Origin: a virus
Lineage: Duplodnaviria; Heunggongvirae; Uroviricota; Caudoviricetes
Length of the DNA: 44,513 nt
Reading direction: 5' to 3' (one strand)
IMG/VR virus record: IMGVR_UViG_2703718788_000013
Below are positions 2,321-28,106 of this stretch, in pieces (positions within the stretch are counted from its first letter, which is position 1; every line of letters starts with the position of its first letter). Below the pieces are notes generated by a model. It had not been told where the DNA came from and made no database searches. It saw nothing but the letters and a program-made list of their open reading frames with translations. Made by a program: the position numbers and the translations under genes.

Positions 2321-4792
2321 TTAAAAATCAGCCTGACTCGGGATCAGTTTTTGCCAGATAGCTGAAACGTATTTTGCTTGGTAACGAGCGTCATCAAGTG
2401 CATTATGGCGCTCACCTTCGAATGGGATAGCAGTTCTGGCATCGAAGTCTATGGCTTTCCCCAGCTCAACGATTGTGCGTATATCGCGATCGTTGTAGTA
2501 ACGCCACGGGCAGGGGATCCCCTGCCGTTCGTATGAACGGCGCAAAATCGTGTTGTCGAAGTTTGCTCCATTTCCCCAGACCTGAACAAAAAATTCACCG
2601 GAGTTTTCGTCGATAAATTCCCGCAATTGTAACAGTGCATCATCTAACGGGATTTCATCGGTCATAATGGCAGATTGCGCTTCGCGTGATTGCTTAAGCC
2701 ACCATTTAATGGTGTCCCGATCAATGACTCCGCCAGCAGTTTCCAGATCGACAGTCTTACTAAATTCCGGTCCCATATCTCCGGTTTGCGGATCGAAAAA
2801 TATTGCACCTATTGAGATAATCGGGGCATCAGGATTTTTTCCCATGGTTTCAAGGTCGATCATCAGATGAATCCCCGCTCTGCTGGTGGATGTGAGATTA
2901 TGATGACCGTTCATCTTAATTAAGGGATCTGACGCCTCGCCAGTTTCACTATCGCTGGCATGATGCTGATTGCCGCCAGTGTTCTCCTTGTGCTGATGCG
3001 CAGTGCCTTCCATTTCCTCCGGAACATTTTCCTGAACTTCAGGCTGATTCTCTTCATCGAATATTTCCTGGTATGTTGCGTCGCCCATCACCGCACCACA
3101 ATCAGGGCAGCTACCGCCGCCGGTCTGACCGCAGGCGGTGCAGGCTTTTTCCGGCTCCTGTTGCGCTACTGGTTCAACCTGTTTCGTTTCTGGCTCGTTT
3201 TGTTGCGCATTTGGGCTGTTTTGTTCCGTTTTTTGGTCGTTCTGTTCCGATTCTTGCTGGTTCTGGTTTACAGAGTCGCGGGTTTCAATCCCCTTCACCC
3301 ATTTCGGATCATTCGGGTCGCTAATCCCTGCAACAAATTCTCCGCGAGAGGCAGCAAGCAACTTATCGGCGTCAGGCTGGCTGATATTGGCTGCCTGCAT
3401 AATTTTGTTTACTTCTTCAGCGGTAACTTTTACCGGCTCTGGTTGTGCGGTCGTGTCAGATGCACCAGTATTTTGTTGTGAACCTGAGTATGTACTGTTT
3501 TTGCGGGCAAAATATTCTTCTTTCGTGATTTCAGTAGCCCCTGCAGTCAGCGCCTTATTCAGACCAGAAAGTTTGTTTGCGCGACCATATTTTTCGCCAT
3601 CCTTATCTGTGAAGAGGAAGTAGAACGGCCCTTCACGCTCTACAGATGGTTCGACTTCCACTTTGCATTCGGTTTTTTCGTTGTCCGGAATTGCCGTTTC
3701 CACTGCATCAGTTTCTGGTACTGGCGACGAGAGAGTATCAGTTGCGCTCTGATTTGTTCCTTCATCTTCAAACACGCCCTTTGTAGTCAGATATTCAGTA
3801 ATGTATTTGTTCAGTGCCACAGGGGTTTTGTGAATGTCGATCGGACGTTCACGGACAAGGCCAAAAATAGTCTGGCGGTCGTAGCGAAGGGCATCAGGCT
3901 GTTTGCGCATTGATGCCGAGATACGCTTCCAGTCTTCGCGGTCGTTGTCGATAACTTCATTTTTTGCCCAGCGATGGATGCTGCCGTCAATGTTTCCGGC
4001 ATCAATGTCACCAGGCCACAGAGCGTAGGCCAGTTCATCATCCAGTGTTTTCCATGTCTGCTTGTATTCGCGACGAATGGTGGCAGTGGCTGGGGGGATT
4101 TTCGCTACTGAGTTTTCAGTGTTCTGCCGGTTGACTCTGGCGCGGGCAAGATCAACAACAGACGTGTATTTCCCGGTTTCTTTGCGTTCGGCTTCGCGAC
4201 GTTTTTTCCAGGTGCGTAATTCTGTCTGGATCTCAGGCCATTTTGCTCCCGGCTTACATTTATGTTTAACCCACCCGATGGCGAGCAGCTTGAGCTCTGA
4301 ATACATGACGTTAACTTCAGGCATTTTCATCAATGCCTCAACGATATGCCCGTCGAATGTTGCCATGTCCTCCTGCAGTAATTCCTGAGCACTAATCACC
4401 ATATCAACGGTGATGTTTTCACATGTACCGAACTTAACCAGGACCGCGTTCTGTACTTCAAGGGACAGCTTGTTAAAATTGACGTTCATCGGATCGGATT
4501 CTGGTTCGACCGGAATAAAGGAAGCGGATTCCTCATCCCAGCGGTTTTCCTGCATATATTCGGTATCCCAGGAGTCGATAGCAGGGCGGGGCATGCCGGG
4601 TTTATCCTCGCAGACAAGAAATTTATAAGCGCAGTCCTGAGCAGCCGGATATTGCTCCAGGAATTGCCAGGTAAATTTGGCACGGGCGCGGCGTTCGTCA
4701 CCGGCTTCAATGGCAGTGGCTACAGCAATTGCACCTTCTTCCTTTATTGCCTGTTCGTCCGGAATGGCGGCGCAAATAAAGACTTTACTCAT
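2321..4792 (-). CDS. Large exonuclease-family protein with C-terminal DnaQ-like DEDDh 3'-5' exonuclease domain (RecE position)
   Basis: 823-aa ORF, GAGG ribosome-binding site 10 nt upstream; C-terminal motifs IDLETMG (Exo I), WGNGANFD (Exo II), HNALDDA (Exo III); central acidic/Q-rich linker with CxxC...CxxC (CTACGQTGGGSCPDCG). Confidence 0.8.
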   Translation of the reverse strand: MSKVFICAAIPDEQAIKEEGAIAVATAIEAGDERRARAKFTWQFLEQYPAAQDCAYKFLVCEDKPGMPRPAIDSWDTEYMQENRWDEESASFIPVEPESDPMNVNFNKLSLEVQNAVLVKFGTCENITVDMVISAQELLQEDMATFDGHIVEALMKMPEVNVMYSELKLLAIGWVKHKCKPGAKWPEIQTELRTWKKRREAERKETGKYTSVVDLARARVNRQNTENSVAKIPPATATIRREYKQTWKTLDDELAYALWPGDIDAGNIDGSIHRWAKNEVIDNDREDWKRISASMRKQPDALRYDRQTIFGLVRERPIDIHKTPVALNKYITEYLTTKGVFEDEGTNQSATDTLSSPVPETDAVETAIPDNEKTECKVEVEPSVEREGPFYFLFTDKDGEKYGRANKLSGLNKALTAGATEITKEEYFARKNSTYSGSQQNTGASDTTAQPEPVKVTAEEVNKIMQAANISQPDADKLLAASRGEFVAGISDPNDPKWVKGIETRDSVNQNQQESEQNDQKTEQNSPNAQQNEPETKQVEPVAQQEPEKACTACGQTGGGSCPDCGAVMGDATYQEIFDEENQPEVQENVPEEMEGTAHQHKENTGGNQHHASDSETGEASDPLIKMNGHHNLTSTSRAGIHLMIDLETMGKNPDAPIISIGAIFFDPQTGDMGPEFSKTVDLETAGGVIDRDTIKWWLKQSREAQSAIMTDEIPLDDALLQLREFIDENSGEFFVQVWGNGANFDNTILRRSYERQGIPCPWRYYNDRDIRTIVELGKAIDFDARTAIPFEGERHNALDDARYQAKYVSAIWQKLIPSQADF

Positions 4793-5137: not shown

Positions 5138-5311
5138 AATTATCTCCATTTTTACAAATGAACTTTGTTGATGCGGTGCCTGGTGCCTCCAGGTGACGTT
5201 AACCAGTTAACAATTAACGCCGGATACAGAGAATCCACCCATAACACTGTTTTTGGTTTTAACTGTTCCGCGTGCGCTTAGCCGCATTCACCGCATCACA
5301 AAATTCACTTT

Positions 5312-5369
5312 AAAAAGGGCGGCAGAGCAGTCACGGAGTAAAACTGATACCGCCAAACGCCACCAGAAA
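5312..5369 (-). ncRNA. dicF: DicF-like small RNA (ftsZ translation inhibitor family) with intrinsic terminator
   Basis: Minus-strand sequence TTTTCTGGTGGCGTTTGGCGGTATCAGTTTTACTCCGTGACTGCTCTGCCGCCCTTTTT matches the remembered E. coli DicF sequence with one mismatch; GGCGG...CCGCC stem then U-run; no ORF in the region. Confidence 0.7.
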
Positions 5370-5705
5370 ATTGATAACAGAGGGCGTTGTAGCGGGGTTG
5401 TCACTTAAGCGTATGGTCAACCTGACAACCCGGTGTCCTCAACGGGGAAGGAATAACCCCGCCATACTTACCGCCGCGCCATTTCGCGGAGTGCCACAAC
5501 CGGAAGCGCACGGTCGAATTAAATTTAACGACACCGTACAGAGAGACCAATTTCGCCGTGCGCTTTCGCGTTATGCCTTGGCTTTTCAGGGATATATCCT
5601 TTCAGTAAACTGTCAGTACCGGATTCTTATCCGTGTCCGGCGCACGACCACACGTGACAGCGTGTTGGTCTCCATTTTTAACCCAGAACCTCAATGGAGG
5701 ATAAA

Positions 5706-5915
5706 ATGCCAAACAAAAAAAGAAATCCGCTTATTGAAAAACAGATTGAATGCCTGGTAAATCAACTCAGGCAATCAGGGTTATTAAAAACTCATTCAGA
5801 GTTGAGGCTCACAGAATCAGCATTCGACGATAAATTAAATAATGTCCTTTATAATGGCATTATTGATTTTAATCGTTCTGTTGGTCGCCGCGGCCCTGCT
5901 GGTGTTTCCTTATAA
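5706..5915 (+). CDS. Hypothetical 69-aa protein, encoded antisense to the early-left operon
   Basis: ATG at 5706 preceded by GGAGG 5 nt upstream; ORF-track 5694..5915. Confidence 0.45.
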   Translation: MPNKKRNPLIEKQIECLVNQLRQSGLLKTHSELRLTESAFDDKLNNVLYNGIIDFNRSVGRRGPAGVSL

Positions 5916-6554
5916 TTACCAGTCAATCCAGAGCGGACCGTGTTCAGCGTAAATATAACTGTACACATCCAGATTATATTTGTGGTCTGTTAAGAACAGG
6001 CCGCAAATACATGCCGAAGCTTCCAGGGCAGCGGCTCTGTTACTGAATAACCATGTAGCAACATTCCAGCGTTTTTCTGCATCCCAGTCTTTCTCAAGGC
6101 CTGATACCATGAAGAAACCGTTAGTGTTGCCATCAAATAATTCTGTTTCCAGATTTTTAAGCAATGCCTGATGGACTCTTGCCAGGTATTCCGCCGGAAT
6201 TTCGCCACGAATTCTGATGAGATTGTCATAAACAAACATGTTCCCCGCATATGGCGATTTTTCTTTCTTGTTTTTTAAACCAGCATCATGAGCAAACTGA
6301 TCAATTTCTTCTTCCGTTGGTTTCGTATTGATGTTTTGCGCTGTCGTTTCTGCAATTTTATTTGCCACACTCTCTGAGTCGTGTTTATTTACAGACGCAC
6401 AGAAATACAATCCGGTAAACGCATCGCGCACATTACGAGCCATATTATCAGTGTCTTTTTTCGTTACCGATTCCAATGCAAGTTCGTTCAGACGATGACG
6501 AAGTGTGTGTGCTGCAATCTCCTGGATTGAAGTAGGTAAATCTTTAAATTCCAT
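5916..6554 (-). CDS. Hypothetical early-left protein, 212 aa
   Basis: ORF-track 5916..6566; ATG at 6554 (MEFKDLPTSIQ) has GAGG 7 nt upstream and follows the stop of the upstream ORF. Confidence 0.6.
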   Translation of the reverse strand: MEFKDLPTSIQEIAAHTLRHRLNELALESVTKKDTDNMARNVRDAFTGLYFCASVNKHDSESVANKIAETTAQNINTKPTEEEIDQFAHDAGLKNKKEKSPYAGNMFVYDNLIRIRGEIPAEYLARVHQALLKNLETELFDGNTNGFFMVSGLEKDWDAEKRWNVATWLFSNRAAALEASACICGLFLTDHKYNLDVYSYIYAEHGPLWIDW

Positions 6555-6565
6555 CGTCAACCTCA

Positions 6566-6796
6566 TCAGTCAGAGTTTCTTGCTAACCAGCGATGCGCGC
6601 CAGCTTCGGTTTTAAACGTTTTACTTTTGGTATACGTCATCGCGGTGAACGTGCCGTCCTGGTTGGGAAACACGCCGTACACCAGAGATTCGTTGTTGCC
6701 AAGATCGATAGTATCCATGCTGACCTCATTTCCCCTTAACGCCGGGGTAGCGGAACAAAAACCTGCTGCATAGTTAAAGTTGAACCCTGCCGTCAT
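6566..6796 (-). CDS. Hypothetical early-left protein, 76 aa (first gene after putative pL)
   Basis: ORF-track 6566..6796 minus; tightly coupled to downstream ORF. Confidence 0.5.
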   Translation of the reverse strand: MTAGFNFNYAAGFCSATPALRGNEVSMDTIDLGNNESLVYGVFPNQDGTFTAMTYTKSKTFKTEAGAHRWLARNSD

Positions 6797-6899
6797 GTTC
6801 TTACGCCTCGGGCTGGCTACTTAACCCCTGACCACTGCCTGGTAACTCGAAGTATTGCCCTGCGTGCTGTGGGGCGGGGTGGGTTGGTATGTTGTCAAG

Positions 6900-6913
6900 G
6901 TAACAAGAGTTAC
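6900..6913. promoter_or_regulatory. OL-like operator, GTAAC-N4-GTTAC palindrome
   Basis: GTAACAAGAGTTAC between repressor gene end and first early-left ORF; same motif as the two sites in the cI-cro intergenic region. Confidence 0.5.
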
Positions 6914-6955
6914 CGGAAAAGTCAATGAGATGTTGCAAAAGGTACATACAGGAGC

Positions 6956-6981
6956 GCAAAAAACCCGCAATGAATGCGGGT
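6956..6981 (-). terminator. Intrinsic terminator downstream of repressor gene
   Basis: Minus-strand AACCCGCA / TGCGGGTT 8-bp stem followed by TTTTTT, just after repressor stop. Confidence 0.6.
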
Positions 6982-6987
6982 TCTGAC

Positions 6988-7662
6988 TCAGTCTAAATAT
7001 TGATGTATTTGTGAAACTTTACCTTTAATAGTGTAACCACCATTCAGTTCAATGGGTTTGTAAAGCGGATTCAGTGACAGCAGATAGATGTTTGGTCCGT
7101 CAATCGCAACTTTTTTTAGTGTTACGTTCGGCGTTCCTTCCAATTGGATTAAGATTATTTTTCCCACCAGTTCTCTAATGTTACTTGAGCATGGCGTGAT
7201 CAGCACGGTAGATCCGTCGGGGATGGTTGGGAGGCCGTTAGAGTTCGTCATCGCATCTCCCTCAACGCGCAATAAAAAAGAGTTTTCAGCGGTTTTTGTC
7301 ATGACATCAACCCAATTCTTAATACCAGGAATCTCGGTTACTGGGCAACTCATATCCCAATAACCAGCCTGTTCCCACGTTAAAACGGGCAACCGGGCGA
7401 TGTTGTCACTAATGTAAAGGTACTGATTCAGACGCAGATCGTCGGTTTTATCGTGACCATCCTTTCCATAAAGAATCCATTCAGGAGATTTGGAAAGCAA
7501 TTTTGACAGCAGATGCAAATTCTCACCGTCAGGTTTTGAAGAGCCATTTTCCCATTTTGTTACGGATACGCGAGATATGCCGATTGCTTTCGCAACCTGC
7601 TGTTGAGTTAGTCCAACGTCTTTTCGACGATTCCGAATACGTTCGCTGATAGTGTTTTTCAT
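6988..7662 (-). CDS. cI: CI-like repressor (HTH_XRE N-terminal domain plus S24 LexA-like C-terminal domain)
   Basis: ORF-track 6988..7761; C-terminal region aligns by eye with lambda CI (VEGDAMT versus VEGNSMT, TLKKV versus TFKKL, QAG linker); start placed at ATG 7662 to leave a 91-bp operator region before cro (ATG 7704 is an alternative). Confidence 0.8.
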   Translation of the reverse strand: MKNTISERIRNRRKDVGLTQQQVAKAIGISRVSVTKWENGSSKPDGENLHLLSKLLSKSPEWILYGKDGHDKTDDLRLNQYLYISDNIARLPVLTWEQAGYWDMSCPVTEIPGIKNWVDVMTKTAENSFLLRVEGDAMTNSNGLPTIPDGSTVLITPCSSNIRELVGKIILIQLEGTPNVTLKKVAIDGPNIYLLSLNPLYKPIELNGGYTIKGKVSQIHQYLD

Positions 7663-7724
7663 GTAACCAATGTTACCACCAAGTGATGTTACTGTGGTTG
7701 ACATCTTTATGTAACTATTGTTAC
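7663..7724. promoter_or_regulatory. OR-like operator region with GTAAC-N4-GTTAC palindromes between cI and cro
   Basis: GTAACCAATGTTAC at 7663-7676 and GTAACTATTGTTAC at 7711-7724, plus a GTTAC half-site near 7688; divergent cI/cro starts flank it. Confidence 0.55.
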
Positions 7725-7753
7725 CCTTTTGTTCGAAATAACAGGAGAGTTTT

Positions 7754-7969
7754 ATGTTCAAAGATGATGTTCTGCGCTATTTCAAAAAAAAGCGACTAGT
7801 AGCTGAGGCTCTTGGAATTTCACATGTGGCTGTTGTGCGGTGGAAAGCAGTTATTCCCAAACTTCGCGCAATGGAGCTGGATGAAATTACTAACGGTGAA
7901 TTGAAATACAATCCAGAACTTTACAAGAAGCAGGATAGCACCTCGAACGAAGGAAAGAATGATTCATGA
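7754..7969 (+). CDS. cro: Cro-like small HTH regulator
   Basis: 71-aa ORF divergent from cI, AGGAG ribosome-binding site at 7743-7749; HTH-like segment RLVAEALGISHVAVVRWK. Confidence 0.7.
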   Translation: MFKDDVLRYFKKKRLVAEALGISHVAVVRWKAVIPKLRAMELDEITNGELKYNPELYKKQDSTSNEGKNDS

Positions 7970-8391
7970 AAATCAAGCATGAACACATCCGCATGGCGAT
8001 GAATGCCTGGGCGCATCCGGACGGCGAAAAAATACCGGCTGCGAAAATTACCAAAGCGTATTTCGAACTGGGAATGACGTTCCCGGAACTGTATGACGAC
8101 AGCCATCCGGAAGCTCTGGCTCGCAATACTCAGAAAATTTTCCGCTGGGTAGAGAAAGACACCCCTGATGCAGTTGAAAAAATTCAGGCGTTGTTACCAG
8201 CGATCGAAAAGGCAATGCCACCTTTGCTGGTGGCCAGAATGCGCAGCCACAGTTCAGCTTATTTTCGGGAGCTGGTGGAAACGCGGGAGCGATTGGTGAG
8301 AGACGCTGATGATTTTGTCGCAGTGGCAATCGCCGGTTTCAATCAGATGAACCGTGGTGGCCCGGCAGGAAATGCTGTGGCAGTACATTGA
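7966..8391 (+). CDS. YdaT-like protein (CII-position regulator)
   Basis: 141-aa ORF translationally coupled to cro (ATGA overlap); N-terminus MKIKHEHIRMAMNAW resembles Rac YdaT as remembered. Confidence 0.5.
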   Translation: MKIKHEHIRMAMNAWAHPDGEKIPAAKITKAYFELGMTFPELYDDSHPEALARNTQKIFRWVEKDTPDAVEKIQALLPAIEKAMPPLLVARMRSHSSAYFRELVETRERLVRDADDFVAVAIAGFNQMNRGGPAGNAVAVH

Positions 8392-8462
8392 CTGACAATA
8401 GCCATATCGAATCGCTTCCGGCAACTCGTGAGTAAAAAGATTCGGTATCAGAAGAGGTGAGT

Positions 8463-9533
8463 ATGGCTAACGCCTGGCTCAGATTATGGCATGACATGCC
8501 GAATGACCCTAAGTGGCGAACAATTGCCAGGGTGTCAGGGCAGCCAATTGCAACAGTGATGGCAGTGTATATCCACCTCCTGGTGAGCGCGTCACGAAAT
8601 GTCACGCGAGGTCACATTGATGTCACGACAGAAGATTTGGCAAGTGCGCTCGACGTGACAGAAGAGGTAATTGATTCAATTTTGCAGACGATGCAGGGGC
8701 GGGTACTTGATGGTGATTTAATCACTGGATGGGAAAAACGCCAGGTGCTGAAAGAGGACAACGGCAATATTTCGCAAACCGCAAAATCTCCTGCAGAGCG
8801 CAAGAGGGCGCAGCGAGAGAGGGAAAGAAAGCGGGAACAAAATGGCGATTGTCACGGCGCGTCACGAAATGTCACGCACATGTCACGACGAGTCACGACA
8901 GATAAAGATACAGATAAAGATACAGATAAAGAAGATCAAAACACTATGGTCCATGGCGTAAAAAACGCCACGAACCAGGCAGGGGATGTTCAGTCCGTCA
9001 ATCCTGGTCAGCCAGCAGGCACGACACCGGAAGCCGATTCAGCGTATGCGCTGAAAGCCGATTCGGGCGCTGTGCAGCAGGTGATGACCGCAAGGCCGGA
9101 GCAATCACTCCAACTGCAGCAGCCTGAAGCCGATTCCGCCATTCAGCGGGAGGCCGAGCGGGTAGCCCCGGAAAACACCGGGCAGCCTGTGGGACGAGTG
9201 GATTATCCAGAAGTGTTCGAACAGGTCTGGCGGGAATACCCGTTGCGTGCCGGGGCAAACCCGAAGAAATCCGCTTTCAGTGCCTGGAAGGCCAGATTAC
9301 GCGAGGGGGTGCCACCAGAGGCCATGCTAGATGGTGTGAGGCGTTACGCAAGATACCTGGCGGCTACCGGGAAAACGGGAACGGAATTTGTTCAGCGAGC
9401 GACGACGTTTTTTGGACCGGACCGGAATTTTGAAAACCCCTGGTTGCTCCCGGTAAGCGGTACGAACAACCAGCGTTGCGTGAATCACATTTCTGAACCA
9501 GATACCGAAATTCCACCGGGCTTCAGGGGGTAA
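8463..9533 (+). CDS. Replication initiation protein (O-like), with origin repeats inside the coding sequence
   Basis: 356 aa from ATG 8463 with GAAGAGG upstream; positioned after the cro/cII-like genes; contains two iteron clusters and an AT-rich repeat. Confidence 0.65.
   Translation: MANAWLRLWHDMPNDPKWRTIARVSGQPIATVMAVYIHLLVSASRNVTRGHIDVTTEDLASALDVTEEVIDSILQTMQGRVLDGDLITGWEKRQVLKEDNGNISQTAKSPAERKRAQRERERKREQNGDCHGASRNVTHMSRRVTTDKDTDKDTDKEDQNTMVHGVKNATNQAGDVQSVNPGQPAGTTPEADSAYALKADSGAVQQVMTARPEQSLQLQQPEADSAIQREAERVAPENTGQPVGRVDYPEVFEQVWREYPLRAGANPKKSAFSAWKARLREGVPPEAMLDGVRRYARYLAATGKTGTEFVQRATTFFGPDRNFENPWLLPVSGTNNQRCVNHISEPDTEIPPGFRG
8591..8934. repeat. Putative replication origin: two clusters of GTCACG iterons plus three tandem 11-bp GATAAAGATAC repeats
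   Basis: GTCAC(G/A) at 8591, 8601, 8611, 8623 and at 8851, 8861, 8871, 8882, 8892 with about 10-bp periodicity; tandem repeat at 8901-8934. Confidence 0.6.
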
Positions 9534-9573
9534 GTGTTTATTTCAGGTCACGAGGTAATTTTCAGGAGGACTT

Positions 9574-9996
9574 GTGGCAAAAGTTTTTACACAAGAAGAG
9601 CGAGAAAAAATTAAAGGGCAGGTTGTTGAACTCGTACGCCAGAGTGGGCGTGAGACGTTACGGCAACTGGAAGTCAAGACAGGTGCGACAAGATATCTGA
9701 TGAGCGTTCTCGCAAGAGAGCTGGTTGCCAGCGGCGATGTATACAACTCTGGTTACGGGTTATTCCCGTCTGAACAGGCGCGTAAGGACTGGCAAAATGC
9801 CCGTAAAAAGCTCTCAAGGGCAAAGCTGAAGAAACCATCTGCGGTTGATCCGGACCTTATCTGGTCATTACCTGATGGAGAAATACGTCGTTACGACAGG
9901 CGTCATAATATAATTTGTACTGAGTGTCGTAAAAGCGAAGTTATGCAGCGCATATTGTCGTTTTATCAGGGGGATGTTCGGTATTTATTGAAGTGA
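9574..9996 (+). CDS. Hypothetical 140-aa protein
   Basis: GTG start at 9574 with AGGAGG 5 nt upstream; occupies the position where lambda carries the helicase loader. Confidence 0.55.
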   Translation: MAKVFTQEEREKIKGQVVELVRQSGRETLRQLEVKTGATRYLMSVLARELVASGDVYNSGYGLFPSEQARKDWQNARKKLSRAKLKKPSAVDPDLIWSLPDGEIRRYDRRHNIICTECRKSEVMQRILSFYQGDVRYLLK

Positions 9997-10238
9997 CGAG
10001 ATTAAAATGCATTAGTTAAGATGTGAATTGACATTTTGTGGCACAGGATAGAGCTAGCGTGGTTGTCCGCTTTGTGCCAAAAGCGGACGTTAAGCTTACC
10101 AACTCATATTTTAAGGTCATAGGTGCGTATAAACGAAGTACCACGCTTAGGAGTAGTGAATTTACAGACTTACAAAATCATTTATTTCAGGCCAATTTAT
10201 GTAATGGCATAATCAGGTTGGTGAAAGAGAGGGCTGAA

Positions 10239-10823
10239 ATGGATAAAAAATCTAAAAATCAGATAGTAGATAGCGATATTGCACGTTTATTGCTTAAACA
10301 TAGGAAGGCTCGCAATTTGACTGTAACAGAGCTTGCTCAACGATCGGGCGTCAGTCAGGCCATGATTAGTAAGATTGAACGAGGCATCTCCAGCCCTAGT
10401 GCAACTATCCTTAGCCGCCTGGCCAACGCCATGAATGTAACGCTATCTAAACTCTTTGCAGAGCTTGAGCAACATCAGAATTCTCTGGTTCGTTTTGCTC
10501 ATCAGCAACAGCACTGGACGGATGAGCAATCAGGCATCACTCGTTGGTCTTTGTCTCCTGCGGGGGCATGCCCGGAACTGATCAAAGTTGAAATTCCTGC
10601 AATGGGTGAGTTGACGATACCCGCCTCCGCAAATGAGCATCTTTCCGGGCAAACGCTTTGGGTGATGAGTGGTAGCCTTGATTTTCGAGTCAAAAATCAG
10701 ACCCATCATTTACGTGCCGGTGACTGTCTTGCCCTTACCTTTGCAAGCGAGTACCAAATGAGCAATCCAGATAGTGAGCAGAGCTGTTCTTACATCGTGG
10801 CTTTTAGCCAAAAAAATCAATGA
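10239..10823 (+). CDS. Transcriptional regulator, HTH_XRE N-terminus plus cupin-like C-terminal domain
   Basis: ORF-track 10038..10823; ATG at 10239 (MDKKSKNQ); HTH segment LTVTELAQRSGVSQAMISKIERG. Confidence 0.7.
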   Translation: MDKKSKNQIVDSDIARLLLKHRKARNLTVTELAQRSGVSQAMISKIERGISSPSATILSRLANAMNVTLSKLFAELEQHQNSLVRFAHQQQHWTDEQSGITRWSLSPAGACPELIKVEIPAMGELTIPASANEHLSGQTLWVMSGSLDFRVKNQTHHLRAGDCLALTFASEYQMSNPDSEQSCSYIVAFSQKNQ

Positions 10824-10843
10824 TATCTTCTCTGCCACATTGG

Positions 10844-11287
10844 TTACATGTTATTGGCCATTCTCAGATGCAACAAGGGGTATGGCCTTCCCTGATTATC
10901 CAGATCGGAACGCCCTGATACCTGAAACCCCATATGCTGATAAAACCCTACAGCCTGCTGGTTTTGTTCATTTACATCAACGCTTAGCTCTGGATGCAGC
11001 GCCAGTGCATGAGAGATCAAACGTTTTCCGACGCCAAGTCCGCGAGCAGAGCCTGCTACAAAAAGTGCCTCCAGATGGCCCTTATGCAAAAACATAAATC
11101 CTAGCGGTTGGTCATCCTGATTTGTTGCAACCCATACAGGAGTTTCTGAGAAAAAGCCGACAACTTCTTTTTCGATTTCTTGTCGGTCATGACCTGTAAG
11201 AAAGTCGTGGGTAGCATCCACTGAACTCTTCCAGATTTGTATGATCTCATCTGCTTCAGATGGTCGTGACATTCTGATATCTAACAT
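10844..11287 (-). CDS. GNAT-family N-acetyltransferase
   Basis: 147-aa ORF with acetyl-CoA binding-like segment (ARGLGVGKRLI); convergent with the HTH-cupin gene. Confidence 0.7.
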   Translation of the reverse strand: MLDIRMSRPSEADEIIQIWKSSVDATHDFLTGHDRQEIEKEVVGFFSETPVWVATNQDDQPLGFMFLHKGHLEALFVAGSARGLGVGKRLISHALALHPELSVDVNEQNQQAVGFYQHMGFQVSGRSDLDNQGRPYPLLHLRMANNM

Positions 11288-11685
11288 TTTTCAACCTTAG
11301 AGTGAACTTTATTTTGTGTAATAACGAACGAAAAGAACTTACTTTAATTTACTATAGTAAAATGATATTCACAATAGTATTTGTGATTTCTATGCCTTAT
11401 CAACGTGATGAGAAGTGCTAAGTTAGTCTGATCCTCTTTATCATCATCAACGACAATGTTCCTGAGCTTTATCACATTGAATGTCCGCTTCTCGCTCAAA
11501 GCGGACTAGAAGGTTAGCTTGCGTCGGACTTGGCGTATTTAAAGAAGTGCTGGTGGTGACTGGTTGTCGTGTTCCATTTCTACAGAACAAAATCACAGAA
11601 ACTATACCCAATAGTTGTATTGAATCACTGACGAGACAGCCTCATATTTATCAGGACTGGTGTACGTCCAATACAGGAGGTTGTG

Positions 11686-11775
11686 GTGCTGGTTCTCAAA
11701 TGTGCGCTGGCTATTGCTGCTGTAATGGCAATTTATTGCCTTGCTGTTGTTCTTATGGATCGCCTTTCTGACTGA
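11686..11775 (+). CDS. Candidate small hydrophobic membrane peptide (about 29 aa)
   Basis: AGGAGG at 11675-11680 then GTG; product VLVLKCALAIAAVMAIYCLAVVLMDRLSD; overlaps in another frame the Cys-rich 96-aa ORF-track call 11481..11771. Confidence 0.3.
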   Translation: MLVLKCALAIAAVMAIYCLAVVLMDRLSD

Positions 11776-11986
11776 TTTCATATTGGCGAGGTAACGGTAG
11801 TTAAGTAGAATGGCTGTGGGTGCTTGAGGCTATCTGCCTCGGGCATGAACACCAACGGCAGATAGAGAAAAGCCCCAGTTAACATTACGCGTCCTGCAAG
11901 ACGCTTAACATTAATCTGAGGCCAATTTCATGCTAGACACATGTAGGTTAGCCTCTTACGTGCCGAAAGGCAAGGAGAAGCAGGCT

Positions 11987-12142
11987 ATGAAGCAGCAAAA
12001 GGCGATGTTAATCGCCCTGATCGTCATCTGTTTAACCGTCATAGTGACGGCACTGGTAACGAGGAAAGACCTCTGCGAGGTACGAATCCGAACCGACCAG
12101 ACGGAGGTCGCTGTCTTCACAGCTTACGAACCTGAGGAGTAA
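11987..12142 (+). CDS. hok: Hok/Gef-family type I toxin
   Basis: 51-aa product MKQQKAMLIALIVICLTVIVTALVTRKDLCEVRIRTDQTEVAVFTAYEPEE, near-identical to remembered HokD/RelF; AAGGAGAAG ribosome-binding site; 8-bp hairpin at 12151-12170. Confidence 0.85.
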   Translation: MKQQKAMLIALIVICLTVIVTALVTRKDLCEVRIRTDQTEVAVFTAYEPEE

Positions 12143-12309
12143 GAGACCAGGCGAGGGAGAAATCCCTCGCCACCTTTGATGTGTCAGGCATCCTCAACGC
12201 ACCCGCACTTAACCCGTTTCGGCGGGTTTTGTTTTTTCCTGGCATTCTGGTTTACAATTCGCACGCCAGCCTGAACAACTGGCACCTGCTGCGCCAGCAG
12301 AGACAGCCG

Positions 12310-12588
12310 ATGGCGCACGATACCAAATTACACTATTCTGATGATTCTGCCGTCTTTGCCAGCAGGTGTGGACGGCGTTTTCACGCATTCAAATCGGACT
12401 GGTTCCAGCATCCTCCATGCACTGAAGAGCAGGCTGAATGGATAATTCAGTGTTACCGCAGGCGCGGATACGAGGTTAAGAAAGCCCTCAGCCTCGATTA
12501 TCGTCACTGGATAATCTCCGTCAGGCTTCCTTACTCCGAACGCCCACCGCGTCCGTCCCGCACATTCCAGCAACGAATCTGGAGGTAA
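12310..12588 (+). CDS. Rem-like hypothetical protein
   Basis: In-frame ATG at 12310 (MAHDTKLHYSDD) within ORF-track 12181..12588; gene order hok - this ORF - DUF968 mirrors Qin hokD-rem-ydfU. Confidence 0.45.
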   Translation: MAHDTKLHYSDDSAVFASRCGRRFHAFKSDWFQHPPCTEEQAEWIIQCYRRRGYEVKKALSLDYRHWIISVRLPYSERPPRPSRTFQQRIWR

Positions 12589-14907: not shown

Positions 14908-14983
14908 GGCCCTTTAGCTCAGTGGTGAGAGCGAGCGACTCATAATCGCCAGGTCGCTGGTTCAAATCCAGCAAGGGCCACCA
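14908..14983 (+). tRNA. tRNA with CAT anticodon, ileX-like (tRNA-Ile2 or Met)
   Basis: 76-nt cloverleaf, acceptor GGCCCTT/AAGGGCC, anticodon loop CTCATAA, CCA end; resembles remembered E. coli ileX. Confidence 0.8.
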
Positions 14984-14984
14984 A

Positions 14985-15061
14985 CCGCCACTAGCTCATC
15001 AGGAAAGAGCGTCAACCCTTTAAGTTGAGTGTGCGAGGTTCGAGTCCCCGGTGGCGGTCCA
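14985..15061 (+). tRNA. tRNA-like gene, apparent anticodon TTT (Lys-like), non-canonical features
   Basis: Acceptor CCGCCAC/GTGGCGG, anticodon stem TCAAC/GTTGA, loop CCTTTAA (C at position 33), T-loop TTCGAGT, CCA end; A-C mismatch in T-stem. Confidence 0.55.
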
Positions 15062-15063
15062 GT

Positions 15064-15139
<76 letters not shown>

Positions 15140-15142
15140 TAT

Positions 15143-15217
<75 letters not shown>

Positions 15218-19885: not shown

Positions 19886-23572
<3,687 letters not shown>

Positions 23573-23592
<20 letters not shown>

Positions 23593-24892
23593 TCTCCCGC
23601 ATATTGCCAGCATGGCCTTTAATGAGCCGCTGATGCTTGAACCCGCCTATGCGCGGGTTTTCTTTTGTGCGCTTGCCGGCCAGCTTGGGATCAGCCGCCT
23701 GACGGATGCGGTGTCCGGTGACAGCCTGACTGCCGGAGAGGCACCCGCGGCGCTGGCGTTATCCGTTGATGATGACGGACCACGACAGGCCCGCAGTTAT
23801 CAGGTCATGAACGGCATCGCCGTGCTGCCGGTGTCCGGCACGCTGGTCAGCCGGACGCGGGCGCTGCAGCCGTATTCGGGGATGACCGGTTACAACGGCA
23901 TTATCGCCCGTCTGCAACAGGCTGCCAGCGATCCGATGGTGGACGGCATTCTGCTCGATATGGACACGCCCGGCGGGATGGTGGCGGGGGCATTTGACTG
24001 CGCTGACATCATCGCCCGTGTGCGTGACATAAAACCGGTATGGGCGCTGGCCAATGACATGAACTGCAGTGCAGGTCAGCTGCTTGCCAGCGCCGCTTCC
24101 CGGCGTCTGGTCACGCAGACCGCCCGGACAGGCTCCATCGGCGTCATGATGGCTCACAGTAATTACGGCGCTGCGCTGGAGAAACAGGGCGTGGAAATCA
24201 CGCTGATTTACAGCGGCAGCCATAAGGTGGATGGCAACCCCTACAGCCATCTTCCGGATGACGTCCGGGAGACACTGCAGTCCCGGATGGATGCAACCCG
24301 CCGGATGTTTGCACAGAAGGTGTCGGCATATACCGGCCTGTCCGTGCAGGCTGTTCTGGATACCGAGGCTGCAGTGTACAGCGGTCAGGAGGCCATTGAT
24401 GCCGGACTGGCTGATGAACTTGTTAACAGCACCGATGCGATCACCATCATGCGTGATGCACTGGATGCACGTAAATCCCGTCTCTCAGGAGGGCGAATGA
24501 CCAAAGAGACCCAATCAACAACTGTTTCAGCCACTGCTTCGCAGGCTGACATCACCACCGTGGAGCCTGCGAAGGAGGGCGAAAACGCCAGCGCGGCGCA
24601 GCCGGACGTGAACGCGCAGATCACCGCAGCGGTTGCGGCAGAAAACAGCCGCATTATGGGGATCCTCAACTGTGAGGAGGCCCACGGACGCGAAGAACAG
24701 GCACGCGTACTGGCAGAAACCCCCGGAATGACCGTGGAAACGGCCCGCCGCATTCTGGCCGCAGCACCACAGAGTGCACAGGCGCGCAGTGACACTGCGC
24801 TGGATCGTCTGATGCAGGGTGCACCGGCACCGCTGGCTGCAGATAACCCGGCATCTGATGCCGTTAACGATTTGCTGAACACACCAGTGTAA
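23573..24892 (+). CDS. C: Head protease/scaffold protein C (S49 peptidase family)
   Basis: GTG start at 23573 with AGGAGGAG upstream (VTAELRNLPHIASMAF...), lambda gpC-like, 439 aa. Confidence 0.9.
24287..24892 (+). CDS. nu3: Scaffolding protein Nu3, nested in-frame within the 3' part of C
   Basis: Internal ATG at 24287 (MDATRRMFAQKV...), same frame and stop as C; 606-nt length as in lambda. Confidence 0.75.
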   Translation: MDATRRMFAQKVSAYTGLSVQAVLDTEAAVYSGQEAIDAGLADELVNSTDAITIMRDALDARKSRLSGGRMTKETQSTTVSATASQADITTVEPAKEGENASAAQPDVNAQITAAVAAENSRIMGILNCEEAHGREEQARVLAETPGMTVETARRILAAAPQSAQARSDTALDRLMQGAPAPLAADNPASDAVNDLLNTPV

Positions 24893-24901
24893 GGGATGTT
24901 T

Positions 24902-25234
24902 ATGACGAGCAAAGAAACCTTTACTCATTACCAGCCGCTGGGTGGCAGTGACCCGGCACATACGGCAACCGCGCCCGGCGGATTGAGTGCGAAAGCGCCT
25001 GCAATGACCCCGCTGATGCCGGACACCTCCACCCGTAAGCTGGTTGCGTGGGATGGCACCACCGATGGTGCTGCTGTTGGCATTCTTGCTGTTGCTGCTG
25101 ACCAGACCAGCACCACGCTGACGTTCTACAAGTCCGGCACGTTCCGTTATGAGGATGTGCTCTGGCCGGAGGCTGCCAGCGACGAGACGAAAAAACGGAC
25201 CGCGTTTGCCGGAACGGCAATCAGCATCGTTTAA
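24902..25234 (+). CDS. D: Head decoration protein D
   Basis: 110 aa [27 protein letters not shown]..., lambda gpD-like. Confidence 0.95.
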
Positions 25235-25289
25235 CCTGACCCTTCATCACTAAAGGCCGCCTGTGCGGCTTTTTTTACGGGATTTTTTT

Positions 25290-26315
25290 ATGTCGATGTA
25301 CACAACCGCCCAGCTGCTGGCGGCAAATGAGCAGAAATTTAAGTTTGATCCGCTGTTTCTGCGTCTCTTTTTCCGTGAGAGCTATCCCTTCACCACGGAG
25401 AAAGTCTATCTCTCACAAATTCCGGGACTGGTAAACATGGCGCTGTACGTTTCGCCGATTGTTTCCGGTGAGGTTATCCGCTCCCGTGGCGGCTCCACCT
25501 CTGAATTTACGCCGGGATATGTCAAACCCAAGCATGAAGTGAATCCGCAGATGACCCTGCGTCGCCTGCCGGATGAAGATCCGCAGAATCTGGCAGACCC
25601 GGCTTACCGCCGCCGTCGCATCATCATGCAGAACATGCGTGACGAAGAGCTGGCCATTGCCCAGGTCGAAGAGATGCAGGCCGTTTCTGCCGTGCTTAAG
25701 GGCAAATACACCATGACCGGTGAAGCCTTCGATCCGGTTGAGGTGGATATGGGCCGCAGTGAGGCGAATAACATCACGCAGTCCGGCGGCACGGAGTGGA
25801 GCAAGCGTGACAAGTCCACGTATGACCCGACCGACGATATCGAAGCTTATGCGCTGAACGCCAGCGGTGTGATTGATATCATCGTGTTTGATCCGAAAGG
25901 CTGGGCGCTGTTCCGTTCCTTCAAAGCCGTCAGGGAGAAGCTGGATACCCGTCGTGGCTCTCATTCCGAGCTGGAGACAGCGGTAAAAGACCTGGGCAAA
26001 GTGGTGTCTTATAAGGGAATGTATGGCGATGTGGCCATCGTCGTATATTCCGGACAGTACGTGGAAAACGGCGTCAAAAAGAACTTCCTGCCGGACAACA
26101 CGATGGTGCTGGGTAACACTCATGCACGCGGTCTGCGCACTTATGGCTGTATTCAGGATGCGGATGCATTGAGTGAGGGTATTAATGCGTCTCCCCGTTA
26201 TCCGAAAAACTGGAAGACATCCGGCGATCCGGCGCGAGAGTTCACCATGATTCAGTCAGCACCGCTGATGCTGCTGGCTGACCCTGATGAGTTCGTGTCC
26301 GTACAACTGGCGTAA
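25290..26315 (+). CDS. E: Major capsid protein E
   Basis: 341 aa MSMYTTAQLLAANEQKFKFDPLFLRLFF..., lambda gpE-like. Confidence 0.95.
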   Translation: MSMYTTAQLLAANEQKFKFDPLFLRLFFRESYPFTTEKVYLSQIPGLVNMALYVSPIVSGEVIRSRGGSTSEFTPGYVKPKHEVNPQMTLRRLPDEDPQNLADPAYRRRRIIMQNMRDEELAIAQVEEMQAVSAVLKGKYTMTGEAFDPVEVDMGRSEANNITQSGGTEWSKRDKSTYDPTDDIEAYALNASGVIDIIVFDPKGWALFRSFKAVREKLDTRRGSHSELETAVKDLGKVVSYKGMYGDVAIVVYSGQYVENGVKKNFLPDNTMVLGNTHARGLRTYGCIQDADALSEGINASPRYPKNWKTSGDPAREFTMIQSAPLMLLADPDEFVSVQLA

Positions 26316-26356
26316 AAATGGCCCTTCGGGGCCATTTTTTCTCTGTGGAGGAGTCC

Positions 26357-26752
26357 ATGACGAAAGATGAACTGATTGCCCGTCTCCGCTCGCTGGGTGA
26401 GCAACTGAACCGTGATGTCTGCCTGACGGGGACGAAAGAAGAACTGGCGCTCCGTGTGGCAGAGCTGGAAGAAGAGCTTGATGACACGGATGACACTGCC
26501 GGTCAGGACACCCCTCTCAGCCCGGAAAATGTGCTGACCGGGCATGAAAATGAGGTGGTATCAGCGCAGCCGGGTACCGTGACTGATACGGCTGCTCTGG
26601 TCACGGTCGTGGCACTGGTGACGCTGCATACTGATGCACTTCACGCCACGCGGGATGAACCTGTGGCATTTGTGCTGCCGGGAACGGCGTTCCGTGTCTC
26701 TGCCGGTGTGGCAGCTGAAATGACAGAGCGCGGCCTGGCCAGAATGCAATAA
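26357..26752 (+). CDS. FI: DNA packaging protein FI
   Basis: 131 aa MTKDELIARLRSLGEQL..., lambda gpFI-like; hairpin plus T-run at 26319-26345 precedes it. Confidence 0.9.
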   Translation: MTKDELIARLRSLGEQLNRDVCLTGTKEELALRVAELEEELDDTDDTAGQDTPLSPENVLTGHENEVVSAQPGTVTDTAALVTVVALVTLHTDALHATRDEPVAFVLPGTAFRVSAGVAAEMTERGLARMQ

Positions 26753-26763
26753 CGGGAGGCACT

Positions 26764-27117
26764 GTGGCTGATTTCGATAACCTGTTCGATGCTGCCATTG
26801 CCCGCGCCGATGAAACGATACGCGGGTACATGGGAACGTCAGCCACCATTACATCCGGTGAGCAGTCCGGTGCTGTGATACGTGGTGTTTTTGATGACCC
26901 TGAAAATATCAGCTATGCCGGACAGGGCGTACGCGTTGAAGGCTCCAGCCCGTCCCTGTTTGTCCGGACTGATGATGTGCGGCAGCTGCGGCGCGGCGAC
27001 ACGCTGACCATCGGTGAGGAAAACTTCTGGATAGACCGGATTTCGCCGGATGATGGCGGAAGCTGTCATCTCTGGCTCGGTCGGGGCGTACCGCCTGCCG
27101 TAAACCGTCGCCGCTGA
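26764..27117 (+). CDS. FII: Head-tail connector FII
   Basis: 117 aa, GTG start, lambda gpFII-like. Confidence 0.9.
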   Translation: MADFDNLFDAAIARADETIRGYMGTSATITSGEQSGAVIRGVFDDPENISYAGQGVRVEGSSPSLFVRTDDVRQLRRGDTLTIGEENFWIDRISPDDGGSCHLWLGRGVPPAVNRRR

Positions 27118-27128
27118 AAGGGGGATGT

Positions 27129-27707
27129 ATGGCCATACAGGGTCTTGAGCAGGCCGTTGAAAACCTCAGCCGTATCAGCAAAACGGCGGTGCCCGGTGCC
27201 GCCGCAATGGCCATTAACCGCGTTGCTTCATCCGCGATATCTCAGTCGGCGTCACAGGTTGCCCGTGAGACAAAGGTGCGCCGGAAACTGGTAAAGGAAA
27301 GGGCCAGGCTGAAAAGGGCCACGGTCAAAAATCCGCAGGCCAGAATCAAGGTTAACCGGGGGGATTTGCCCGTAATCAGGCTGGGGAATGCGCGGGTTGT
27401 CCTGTCCCGCCGCAGGCGTCGTAAAAAGGGGCAGCGTTCATCCCTGAAAGGTGGCGGCAGCGTGCTTGTGGTGGGAAACCGTCGTATTCCCGGCGCGTTT
27501 ATTCAGCAACTGAAAAATGGCCGGTGGCATGTCATGCAGCGTGTGGCCGGGAAAAACCGTTACCCCATTGATGTGGTGAAAATCCCGATGGCGGTGCCGC
27601 TGACCACGGCGTTTAAACAGAATATTGAACGGATACGGCGTGAACGTCTTCCGAAAGAGCTGGGCTATGCGCTGCAGCATCAACTGAGAATGGTAATAAA
27701 GCGATGA
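27129..27707 (+). CDS. Z: Tail completion protein Z
   Basis: 192 aa, lambda gpZ-like. Confidence 0.9.
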   Translation: MAIQGLEQAVENLSRISKTAVPGAAAMAINRVASSAISQSASQVARETKVRRKLVKERARLKRATVKNPQARIKVNRGDLPVIRLGNARVVLSRRRRRKKGQRSSLKGGGSVLVVGNRRIPGAFIQQLKNGRWHVMQRVAGKNRYPIDVVKIPMAVPLTTAFKQNIERIRRERLPKELGYALQHQLRMVIKR

Positions 27708-28099
27708 AACATACTGAACTCCGTGCAGCCGTACTGGATGCACTGGAGAAGCATGACACCGGGGCGACGCTTTTTGATGGTCGCCCCGCTGTTTTTGATG
27801 AGGAGGATTTTCCGGCAGTTGCCGTTTATCTCACCGGCGCTGAATACACGGGCGAAGAGCTGGACAGCGATACCTGGCAGGCAGAGCTGCATATCGAAGT
27901 TTTCCTGCCTGCTCAGGTGCCGGATTCAGAGCTGGATTCGTGGATGGAGTCCCGGATTTATCCGGTGATGAGCGATATCCCGGCACTGTCAGATTTGATC
28001 ACCAGTATGGTGGCCAGTGGCTATGACTACCGGCGCGACGATGATGCGGGCCTGTGGAGTTCAGCCGATCTGACTTATGTCATTACCTATGAAATGTGA
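27704..28099 (+). CDS. U: Tail terminator protein U
   Basis: 131 aa, lambda gpU-like. Confidence 0.9.
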
Positions 28100-28106
28100 G
28101 GACGAT

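Follow-up and report, generated by a model that had tools for sequence, protein, structure and literature searches.

The window analysed here, the whole 44,513-nucleotide (nt) stretch of the Caudoviricetes record IMGVR_UViG_2703718788_000013, contains two units of different nature between the replication gene and the hok/sok locus of a Rac-type lambdoid prophage of Escherichia coli. One is a Ren-like gene encoding 140 amino acids (aa), which is part of the lambdoid backbone and not cargo. The other is a mobile cassette of 1,442 bp (window positions 10065-11506), a two-gene module that encodes a transcriptional regulator with predicted helix-turn-helix (HTH) and cupin domains and, convergent with it, an N-acetyltransferase of the GNAT family. 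We assign a probability of about 70% to the reading in which the backbone Ren-like gene is followed by a mobile cassette of chromosomal origin whose regulator represses the GNAT gene; the most likely role of this cassette is a regulated chemical-stress or detoxification function. The cargo is a mobile, prophage-borne case of known kinds, namely, a moron in which a YjaB-family GNAT is placed under an XRE-cupin regulator.

The regulator/GNAT pair represents a clean case of a temperate phage that captures a complete sensor-plus-enzyme module, which spreads among mobile elements of unrelated kinds. This module, conserved from Escherichia through to Acinetobacter, is statistically tied to onion pathogenicity in Pantoea, and its predicted operator would provide a handle on the inducing ligand and, subsequently, on the substrate of a YjaB-type enzyme family that lacks a phenotype. 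The ends of the cassette, two short palindromic elements denoted L and R, may matter more than the pair itself because they mark exact exchange junctions in two phage families and one island type.

Backbone and cargo in the prophage slot

A sequence-only reading of this region had described three open reading frames (ORFs) as a single cargo block, all atypical of phage housekeeping. The observation itself is real: the ORFs are found at positions 9574-9996 and 10038-10823 on the plus strand and 10844-11287 on the minus strand, and the latter two, described as lying tail to tail with stops about 20 bp apart, are separated by exactly 20 nt between the stop codons. The interpretation as cargo stands for the regulator and the GNAT and fails for the 140-aa ORF. 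The AT-rich character that had been ascribed to the segment is evident in the non-coding flanks (36-40% GC at positions 9900-10350 and 11100-11550) and only mild in the coding sequences (45-50% GC in the regulator and GNAT genes against 50-60% in the neighbouring genes).

The 140-aa ORF belongs to the backbone because this gene, a member of the DUF977 family, is present in 4024 of the 5426 complete E. coli genomes, which contain as many as five copies each. It is located directly 3' of the replication gene wherever its context was inspected. The PHROG 142 profile ('Ren-like exclusion protein'), which includes lambda Ren, covers residues 1-137 of the ORF, and a pairwise test against lambda Ren revealed a short common motif of 20 aa at the C-terminus (E 1e-5). 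Given the PHROG shared with lambda Ren, this motif and the position after the replication gene, the ORF appears to be the positional, remotely homologous counterpart of lambda ren. A helicase loader was considered as the identity of the 140-aa ORF and rejected in favour of the Ren-like DUF977 assignment; furthermore, the regulator/GNAT pair is not conserved at this slot across lambdoid phages. Literature searches on DUF977 turned up nothing relevant.

By contrast, the regulator/GNAT pair is true cargo that is found in at least four mobile contexts of E. coli. The version of the cassette present in the window occurs, at >95% identity, in 13 of the 5426 complete genomes (any full-length pair, in 119). 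The same 1,442 bp, at 97-99% identity, occupy the Rac-type slot in the window, in phage Evi and in strain 2015C-4136CT1, the fun locus of P2-like prophages, between the tail-fibre-assembly and sheath genes, and a CP4-like island at tRNA-Asp. A more distant version (80% identical in DNA and 86% in protein) is located at the att-proximal end of icd-site prophages, beside ompT or sitABCD, and is carried, among others, by the induced phage PhiR29_1, by E. coli 536 and by O55:H7 and some O157:H7 strains. Most O157:H7 genomes have this copy cut inside the GNAT gene, with an autotransporter gene annotated at the break; in O157:H7 strain 493/89 and in O55:H7, the icd-site pair is intact.

The slot between the DUF977 gene and hokD holds other genes in phages Tritos and mEp460_ev081 and in strains CUVET21-37, cS76a and GPEC1354. 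The cargo of sibling prophages at this position includes PD-T7-1, an FRG/PDC-S15 protein, DUF262, SMEK, a ThsB-like TIR protein, PDC-S33, PDC-S51 and an HNH protein. Metabolic cargo is found in the same slots as well, namely, a BCCT transporter with DUF2254, an MFS transporter with LysR and ChaC, an alkyl sulfatase with MscS and FadL, and an iron-uptake operon. The slot of mEp460_ev081 (positions 5337-6686 of its locus) contains the validated defence gene PD-T7-1 (E 4e-157), and that of Tritos (positions 5161-6495 of its locus), the FRG-domain PDC-S15 candidate; the FRG cargo of the phage slot was found also in two P2-like contigs. The pair is identified as cargo by its rarity among the complete genomes, by the different filling of the slot in sibling phages, and by putative promoters of its own, with one promoter region at the outer end of each gene, both inside the cassette, and promoter-like elements conserved at both ends. 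On the same three grounds, the moron that had been proposed from the sequence holds.

Similarly to other phage morons and prophage cargo hotspots, such as the lambda ren/nin region and the P2 fun locus, the cassette is a presumably independent transcription unit that lies between backbone genes and is replaced in relatives, and it occurs itself at the P2 fun position. Unlike these, it brings a regulator and an enzyme of chromosomal origin, neither of them recognised as a defence or virulence factor, and no terminator was found in it. It also differs from what has been reported for the P2 fun hotspot (PMC9519451) in being bounded by specific 24-bp palindromic elements that are not described there.

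The module is older than the phage and was taken up from a bacterial chromosome, because the same convergent pair is found at unrelated, non-phage chromosomal loci of several genera. Relatives of the regulator are 86-94% identical in Serratia, Raoultella, Klebsiella aerogenes, Pantoea, Leclercia, Cedecea, Mangrovibacter and Pseudescherichia, and about 60% identical in Acinetobacter, six species of which carry the convergent pair with 60-74% protein identity. Of the 12 species genomes whose regulator reaches at least 59% identity, 11 encode a YjaB-like GNAT convergently just downstream; the exception is one Enterobacteriaceae metagenome-assembled genome that has the regulator without the GNAT. 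Between the two stop codons, most Enterobacterales have 19-20 nt; the distance is shorter in Mangrovibacter (11 nt) and longer in the icd-site copy (24 nt) and in Acinetobacter (50-74 nt). The genes flanking the pair differ in every genus and are ordinary metabolic, non-phage genes, for example, nrdDG and phn in five S. marcescens strains, an aldehyde dehydrogenase gene in K. aerogenes, mntP in Pantoea and ars genes in A. haemolyticus. The closest chromosomal DNA is that of Raoultella terrigena (85%). Both genes evolve under strong purifying selection, as indicated by low ratios of nonsynonymous to synonymous substitution rates (dN/dS), about 0.05 in the regulator gene and 0.09-0.12 in the GNAT gene, also between the two phage-borne lineages. 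Two natural knock-outs were detected: in A. haemolyticus CIP 64.3 (positions 5658-8591 of the locus), the GNAT gene is interrupted by a 2.7-kb insertion, and in one S. marcescens strain, the regulator is intact and no GNAT gene is called. Among more distant regulators (~40% identical; Alphaproteobacteria and Actinobacteria), no YjaB-like GNAT was found within 5 kb; only weak GNAT-like matches were obtained, at 8 of the 68 loci, with noisy ORF picking in high-GC loci.

The pair is also present on Pantoea megaplasmids; that on the plasmid of P. ananatis PNA 97-1R (positions 7009-8056 of the locus) has 86.9% nucleotide identity to the window. In P. ananatis, 'Onion Virulence Region C', which consists of a puuR-like repressor gene and yjaB, has been reported as an accessory region whose occurrence correlates with onion pathogenicity of the strain (Stice et al. 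2018, PMC5817063). This region comprises the same two genes (585 and 444 nt, annotated as puuR-like and yjaB) in the same convergent order as the cassette, but is located on a 161-kb plasmid of a plant pathogen rather than in a prophage and is known from statistical association alone. The association with onion strains fits a chemical-niche trait.

The regulator, the acetyltransferase and their predicted circuit

The sequence-only reading had named the two proteins an HTH-cupin regulator and a GNAT acetyltransferase, and domain searches agree on both counts. The N-terminus of the regulator contains a Cro/C1-type HTH (Pfam HTH_3, 60.8 bits vs the cutoff of 23). The Pfam Cupin_2 match is below threshold (20.5 bits vs 27.2), but the predicted cupin domain is confirmed by the PuuR profile, which aligns to the regulator over its full length (E 1e-11), by the AlphaFold model (predicted local distance difference test score, pLDDT, 82), which has five N-terminal helices and a C-terminal beta-barrel at residues 84-191, and by a Foldseek search with this model, in which the best PDB match was 1y9q, an HTH_3/cupin regulator of V. 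cholerae, and many cupins were retrieved with a root-mean-square deviation of about 2 A. The regulator shares with PuuR and 1y9q the arrangement of an N-terminal Cro/C1 HTH and a C-terminal cupin barrel. It was rejected as a PuuR orthologue, with 44.5 bits against the equivalog cutoff of 211 and a resemblance in architecture only, and its apparent target is a single GNAT promoter with two palindromes of 10-13 bp. From our reading of the sequence, the usual metal-binding histidines are missing from the cupin, and this domain therefore fits a sensor rather than an enzyme. The maximal ORF of the regulator (10038-10823) would encode 261 aa; the actual start is the ATG at 10239, not the codon at 10038, because the homologues are about 194 aa long, cross-genus DNA homology starts at about position 10157, and the 5' extension crosses the non-coding boundary element.

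The 147-aa product of the convergent gene matches the GNAT models Acetyltransf_10/7/1 in Pfam and PRK10514, the YjaB equivalog of NCBIfam, at 230 bits (cutoff 134) over residues 1-144; the structure of E. coli YjaB, 2kcw, matches it over the whole length (E 3e-49). The acetyl-CoA motif R82-G-L-G-V-G87 (R-x-x-G-x-G) is present, and Tyr116 aligns with Y117 of YjaB, which is needed for activity and the mutation of which abolishes it (PMC6199490). With the motif and the tyrosine kept, the enzyme is predicted to be catalytically competent. YjaB itself is reported to acetylate protein lysines (Christensen et al. 2018, PMC6199490). Like YjaB of strain K-12, the cassette GNAT consists of 147 aa, belongs to the PRK10514 equivalog and retains the motif and the catalytic tyrosine, with about half of the residues identical over the full length. 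Unlike YjaB, it always comes with a convergent gene for an XRE-cupin regulator and with a conserved operator, while the monocistronic yjaB has no such partner (PMC6199490), and it is mobile and prophage-borne instead of residing at the yjaB locus. The paired GNATs are 72-86% identical among themselves across two bacterial orders and about 52% identical to K-12 YjaB, the sequence of which was rebuilt from the alignment of the cassette GNAT with 2kcw, with the termini supplied separately; thus, they appear to form a sub-lineage of their own, distinct from YjaB. All databases label the paired enzyme simply 'acetyltransferase'.

Two more specific identities of the enzyme were considered, of which the first was rejected and the second found no support. 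Chromosomal aac(6') genes of similar size exist in S. marcescens and A. haemolyticus; for an AAC(6')-type resistance enzyme, the NCBIfam scan gave no resistance family and returned PRK10514/YjaB only. An ArsN-like organoarsenical acetyltransferase had been raised because ars genes or an ArsP_1 permease adjoin the pair in Acinetobacter and Serratia; however, the neighbours differ in all other genera, and no PDB match beyond YjaB was obtained.

The promoter regions of both genes seem to travel with them because similarity between genera reaches beyond the coding sequences, by about 80 nt ahead of the regulator gene and by 95-135 nt ahead of the GNAT gene. The two putative promoter hexamers of the GNAT gene are conserved from E. 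coli to Acinetobacter and are overlapped, at both -35 and -10, by a block of two tandem palindromes (Table 1). The palindrome consensus CACTATTGTGAATTTAATTTCACTATAGTAAATTT has 16 invariant columns in 15 taxa, the remaining spacer being not alignable, and is the only block upstream of the GNAT gene that is kept from E. coli to Acinetobacter. In the 44.5-kb window, the pattern YACTATWGTRAAT has exact matches only at 11367-11379 and 11347-11359. Because the gene pairing is conserved across two orders and this double operator covers the GNAT promoter, control of the GNAT by the regulator appears to be the best reading, as had been suggested from the sequence. Under this model, a dimer of the regulator would bind the tandem palindromes, which overlap the -35 and -10 elements of the GNAT promoter, and so repress this promoter, and a small molecule bound in the cupin domain would release the regulator. 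The GNAT would then use acetyl-CoA to N-acetylate an amine, which might be a toxic or plant-derived small compound, a polyamine-like molecule or, as for YjaB, protein lysines, and the lysogen would gain a conditional stress or detoxification trait.

Several observations weigh against this model. The GNAT promoter hexamers are weak, with 4/6 matches each, and a consensus scan offers TTGATA/TACTAT as an alternative; moreover, in a generic promoter scan, promoter-like sites were no more frequent than in shuffled sequence. The upstream alignment shows no similar palindrome in front of the regulator gene, so autoregulation is not indicated, and no terminator was found between the convergent genes, the transcripts of which may overlap and interfere in a manner outside the model. 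Co-conservation is the only ground on which the palindromes would be assigned to the regulator, and repression is favoured over activation only because the sites overlap the core promoter, a distinction that the sequence cannot make. Furthermore, YjaB has no clear phenotype (PMC6199490) to point to a substrate class, and the cassette sits in two known or evident hotspots of defence genes, namely, the DUF977-hokD slot and the P2 fun locus, a setting that would fit a defence role too.

The latter point leads to a rather unlikely alternative, namely, that the pair is an unrecognised anti-phage or inter-phage system in which the XRE-cupin protein silences the response or detects infection, and the GNAT blocks infection by acetylating a target of the phage or the host. 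The company that the pair keeps would agree with such a role: the DUF977-hokD slot of sibling prophages holds PD-T7-1 and the other proteins listed with it above, the P2 fun locus is a second defence-enriched locus according to Vassallo et al. (PMC9519451), and the pair is patchy and mobile within E. coli. However, location is weak evidence given that the same slots hold plainly metabolic cargo. In PADLOC-DB v2, the GNAT matched 0 families at E<=0.01, and the regulator, generic HTH models only; outside the phages, Serratia (5/5 strains shown), Acinetobacter, Klebsiella and Pantoea have the pair at fixed metabolic loci that are not islands; and its conservation, judged by dN/dS, is strong and housekeeping-like. 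The papers on defence hotspots (Rousset 2022, Vassallo 2022, NAR 2026) do not mention an acetyltransferase, GNAT or cupin, and literature searches on defence hotspots in lambdoid phages turned up nothing relevant. That the cassette is a neutral hitch-hiker or a decaying remnant without function in the lysogen is more doubtful still. The frameshifted integrase of the prophage, the truncation of the icd-site GNAT gene in most O157:H7 genomes, and the interrupted or uncalled GNAT genes of A. haemolyticus CIP 64.3 and one Serratia strain would be expected of such a remnant, but both ORFs are intact in the window and in all 13 close copies, dN/dS is low (0.05-0.12) also between two phage-borne lineages, and the promoter and operator are conserved. 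Moreover, several mobile contexts gained the cassette in independent events, and phages that form plaques or were induced (Evi, PhiR29_1) carry it.

GNAT toxins exist and are common on mobile elements, so a type II toxin-antitoxin system with a GNAT toxin of the TacT/AtaT/KacT class and the HTH protein as the antitoxin was also considered; we find it extremely improbable and rejected it on the orientation of the genes, the GNAT family and the type of partner. The regulator does match HipB/Y4mF/PezA-type HTH antitoxin profiles, and the hok/sok addiction locus is next door, but these matches are weak, limited to the HTH and far below cutoffs, and the regulator has a ligand-type cupin domain. As in TacAT, AtaRT and KacAT, which combine a GNAT with a ribbon-helix-helix (RHH) protein, the cassette GNAT lies beside a gene for a DNA-binding protein on a mobile element. 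Unlike in those systems, the genes point towards each other and have separate putative promoters in every genus, a DUF1778/RHH partner is missing, and conserved copies of the pair occupy metabolic loci of bacterial chromosomes; the enzyme is a YjaB equivalog, not a member of the tRNA-acetylating toxin family. The sequence-only reading had drawn the same conclusion from orientation, and the YjaB-like GNAT, the missing DUF1778 and the lack of a PADLOC match for the GNAT add to it. Repression of the GNAT by the cupin regulator in a mobile cassette of chromosomal origin thus remains the reading that we prefer.

Table 1. Features of the cassette region, with window positions and the evidence for each
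Feature	Position	Strand	Evidence
DUF977 / LygF / 'Ren-like' gene, 140 aa	9574..9996	+	Pfam DUF977 E 4e-29; PHROG 142 E 7e-45
Left boundary element L, GTCCGCTTTGTGCCAAAAGCGGAC, 24 bp, 9-bp inverted arms, 6-nt centre	10065..10088	+	homology start
Putative extended -10 of the regulator, TGgCATAAT	10205..10213	+	conserved in all Enterobacterales copies (upstream alignment)
XRE-family HTH + cupin transcriptional regulator, 194 aa	10239..10823	+	HTH_3, PuuR profile, AlphaFold model
YjaB-family GNAT N-acetyltransferase, 147 aa, convergent with the regulator	10844..11287	-	NCBIfam PRK10514, PDB 2kcw
Putative sigma-70 promoter of the GNAT: -35 TTGTGA, 17-nt spacer, -10 TAAATT	11346..11374	-	alignment
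Two tandem imperfect palindromes, TACTATTGTGAAT / TACTATAGTAAAT, 20 bp apart, putative operators	11347..11379	-	phylogenetic footprint
Right boundary element R, GTCCGCTTCTCGCTCAAAGCGGAC, 24 bp	11483..11506	+	homology end

Cargo exchange at the boundary elements L and R

Cargo exchange occurs at the L and R elements. When the window is compared with the P2-like and island copies of the cassette, homology begins exactly at L and ends exactly at R. Both elements consist of inverted arms of 8-9 bp around a centre of 6-8 nt, and no such element is expected in the window by chance. On single-strand folding, L reaches -9.6 kcal/mol (z -4.4) and R, -8.4 kcal/mol (z -4.0); the conserved cores are imperfect terminal inverted repeats, GTCCGCTYTGTGCCAA in L and TCGCTCAAAGCGGAC in R. 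A scan with the L pattern yielded matches in at least 120 IMG/VR contigs, of which 80 loci were examined. In these loci, L follows either the DUF977 gene, at a distance of about 70 nt, or the P2 tail-fibre-assembly gene, at about 65 nt. An R is found 0.9-5.9 kb beyond L, ahead of either hokD (by about 450 nt) or the P2 sheath gene (by about 215 nt). The 64 L...R intervals fall into 26 cargo clusters, so that at least 26 types of cargo exist in lambdoid and P2-like prophages, and three cargos are common to both phage families.

The two arms of each element show different affiliations. Position 8 of L is T in 39/39 lambdoid contexts and C in 16 of the 17 P2 or island contexts; position 21 of R is G in all 37 lambdoid contexts and A in all 11 P2 contexts. 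The inner arm, in turn, is uniform within a cargo cluster, in 10/10 clusters for L and in 8/10 for R. The outer arms follow the host element and the inner arms follow the cargo, and therefore, the junctions lie inside the L and R elements. Cassettes can also be joined in tandem, as R-18 nt-L. In the island of E. coli M19 at tRNA-Asp (positions 20971-28183 of the locus), two tandem L...R cassettes are found, namely, the regulator/GNAT pair and, after 18 nt, a 5.7-kb TonB-receptor/ABC iron-uptake operon; these cassettes adjoin dynamin-family, RdcB-family and patatin genes.

These findings permit a tentative proposal, with the odds somewhat against it, that L and R are the working sites of a cassette-exchange system that operates among lambdoid prophages, P2-like prophages and CP4-like islands of E. 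coli. If this proposal is correct, such a system would shuttle defence genes and chromosomal modules between the three kinds of elements. According to a recent study of P2/P4 defence hotspots, it is unknown how these phages exchange cargo with other elements (PMC13586616). The exchange may be either site-specific, through a recombinase or a hairpin-recognising enzyme, or a matter of short-homology recombination. Because the lambdoid-type L with its flank is present in 2194 of the 5426 E. coli genomes (~40%), the exchange question is directly testable; the P2-type, at full length, is present in 959.

Sequence-specific sites or plain homology appear likelier than a conserved fold. Stem positions of L and R vary without compensation, C·A mismatches are frequent, and position 17 can be any base regardless of position 8. 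Structure-selected hairpins were accordingly not supported, for want of compensatory stem changes, in a test that is biased by the way the L set was ascertained, that is, with a pattern demanding both arms. Intrinsic terminators were rejected, given that a T-tract follows neither element, and so was a known RNA, Rfam finding only sok in the interval 9400-12400. Integron attC cassettes and the pdif modules of Acinetobacter plasmids are site-bounded gene cassettes. With respect to L and R, the likeness consists in short palindromic sites with a 6-nt centre that flank interchangeable cargo, in tandem cassettes, and in junctions that lie inside the sites. The cassettes differ, however, in that no dedicated recombinase was identified for L/R and exchange through short homology may account for the pattern, in the uncompensated stems, and in sequence: L and R are not known to resemble the consensus sequences of integron attC cores or XerC/XerD arms, and an identity as attC or XerCD sites was rejected on this ground. 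We found no description of L and R, or of repeats bounding such cassettes, in the searchable literature, which is incomplete. An IS110-family element has inserted into the L of strain 2015C-4136CT1, at the equivalent of window position 10081, which suggests that L is a preferred target of this element.

The prophage and its neighbouring genes

A prophage of E. coli strain 377323_2f, a Rac-type lambdoid element inserted beside tRNA-Ser/mtfA, matches the window with 100% identity, and the same region is present in phage Evi (LR597642) with 98% identity. The prophage begins with a frameshifted integrase gene, followed by genes for a RecE-like exonuclease, kil, a LexA-family repressor, cro-like and YdaT/cII-like genes. 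Next come the gene for a 358-aa replication protein, the three ORFs discussed above, hok/sok, DUF968/HNH, RusA and Q, and a tRNA cluster after Q precedes the lysis and head genes. The integrase gene by tRNA-Ser (window ~1009-2059; 3436-4486 of the genomic locus) is annotated as frameshifted, and excision of this copy may fail.

The 358-aa replication protein (8457-9533) has no Pfam match and is matched over its full length by PHROG 3729; its C-terminal part matches DnaD-like helicase-loader and DnaT-like profiles, and no separate gene for a lambda-P or DnaC-like loader is present in the window. Directly after the cassette, at 11818-12142, lies the hok/sok type I toxin-antitoxin locus, annotated as hokD, with a match to Rfam sok at 115 bits and to Pfam Hok/gef with E 3e-21. 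Downstream of the Q antiterminator gene, four tRNA genes are located at 14908-15217, which ARAGORN assigns to Met(CAT), Lys, Thr and Gly; the first of these is a tRNA-Ile in RefSeq, which would fit a lysidine-modified CAT anticodon.

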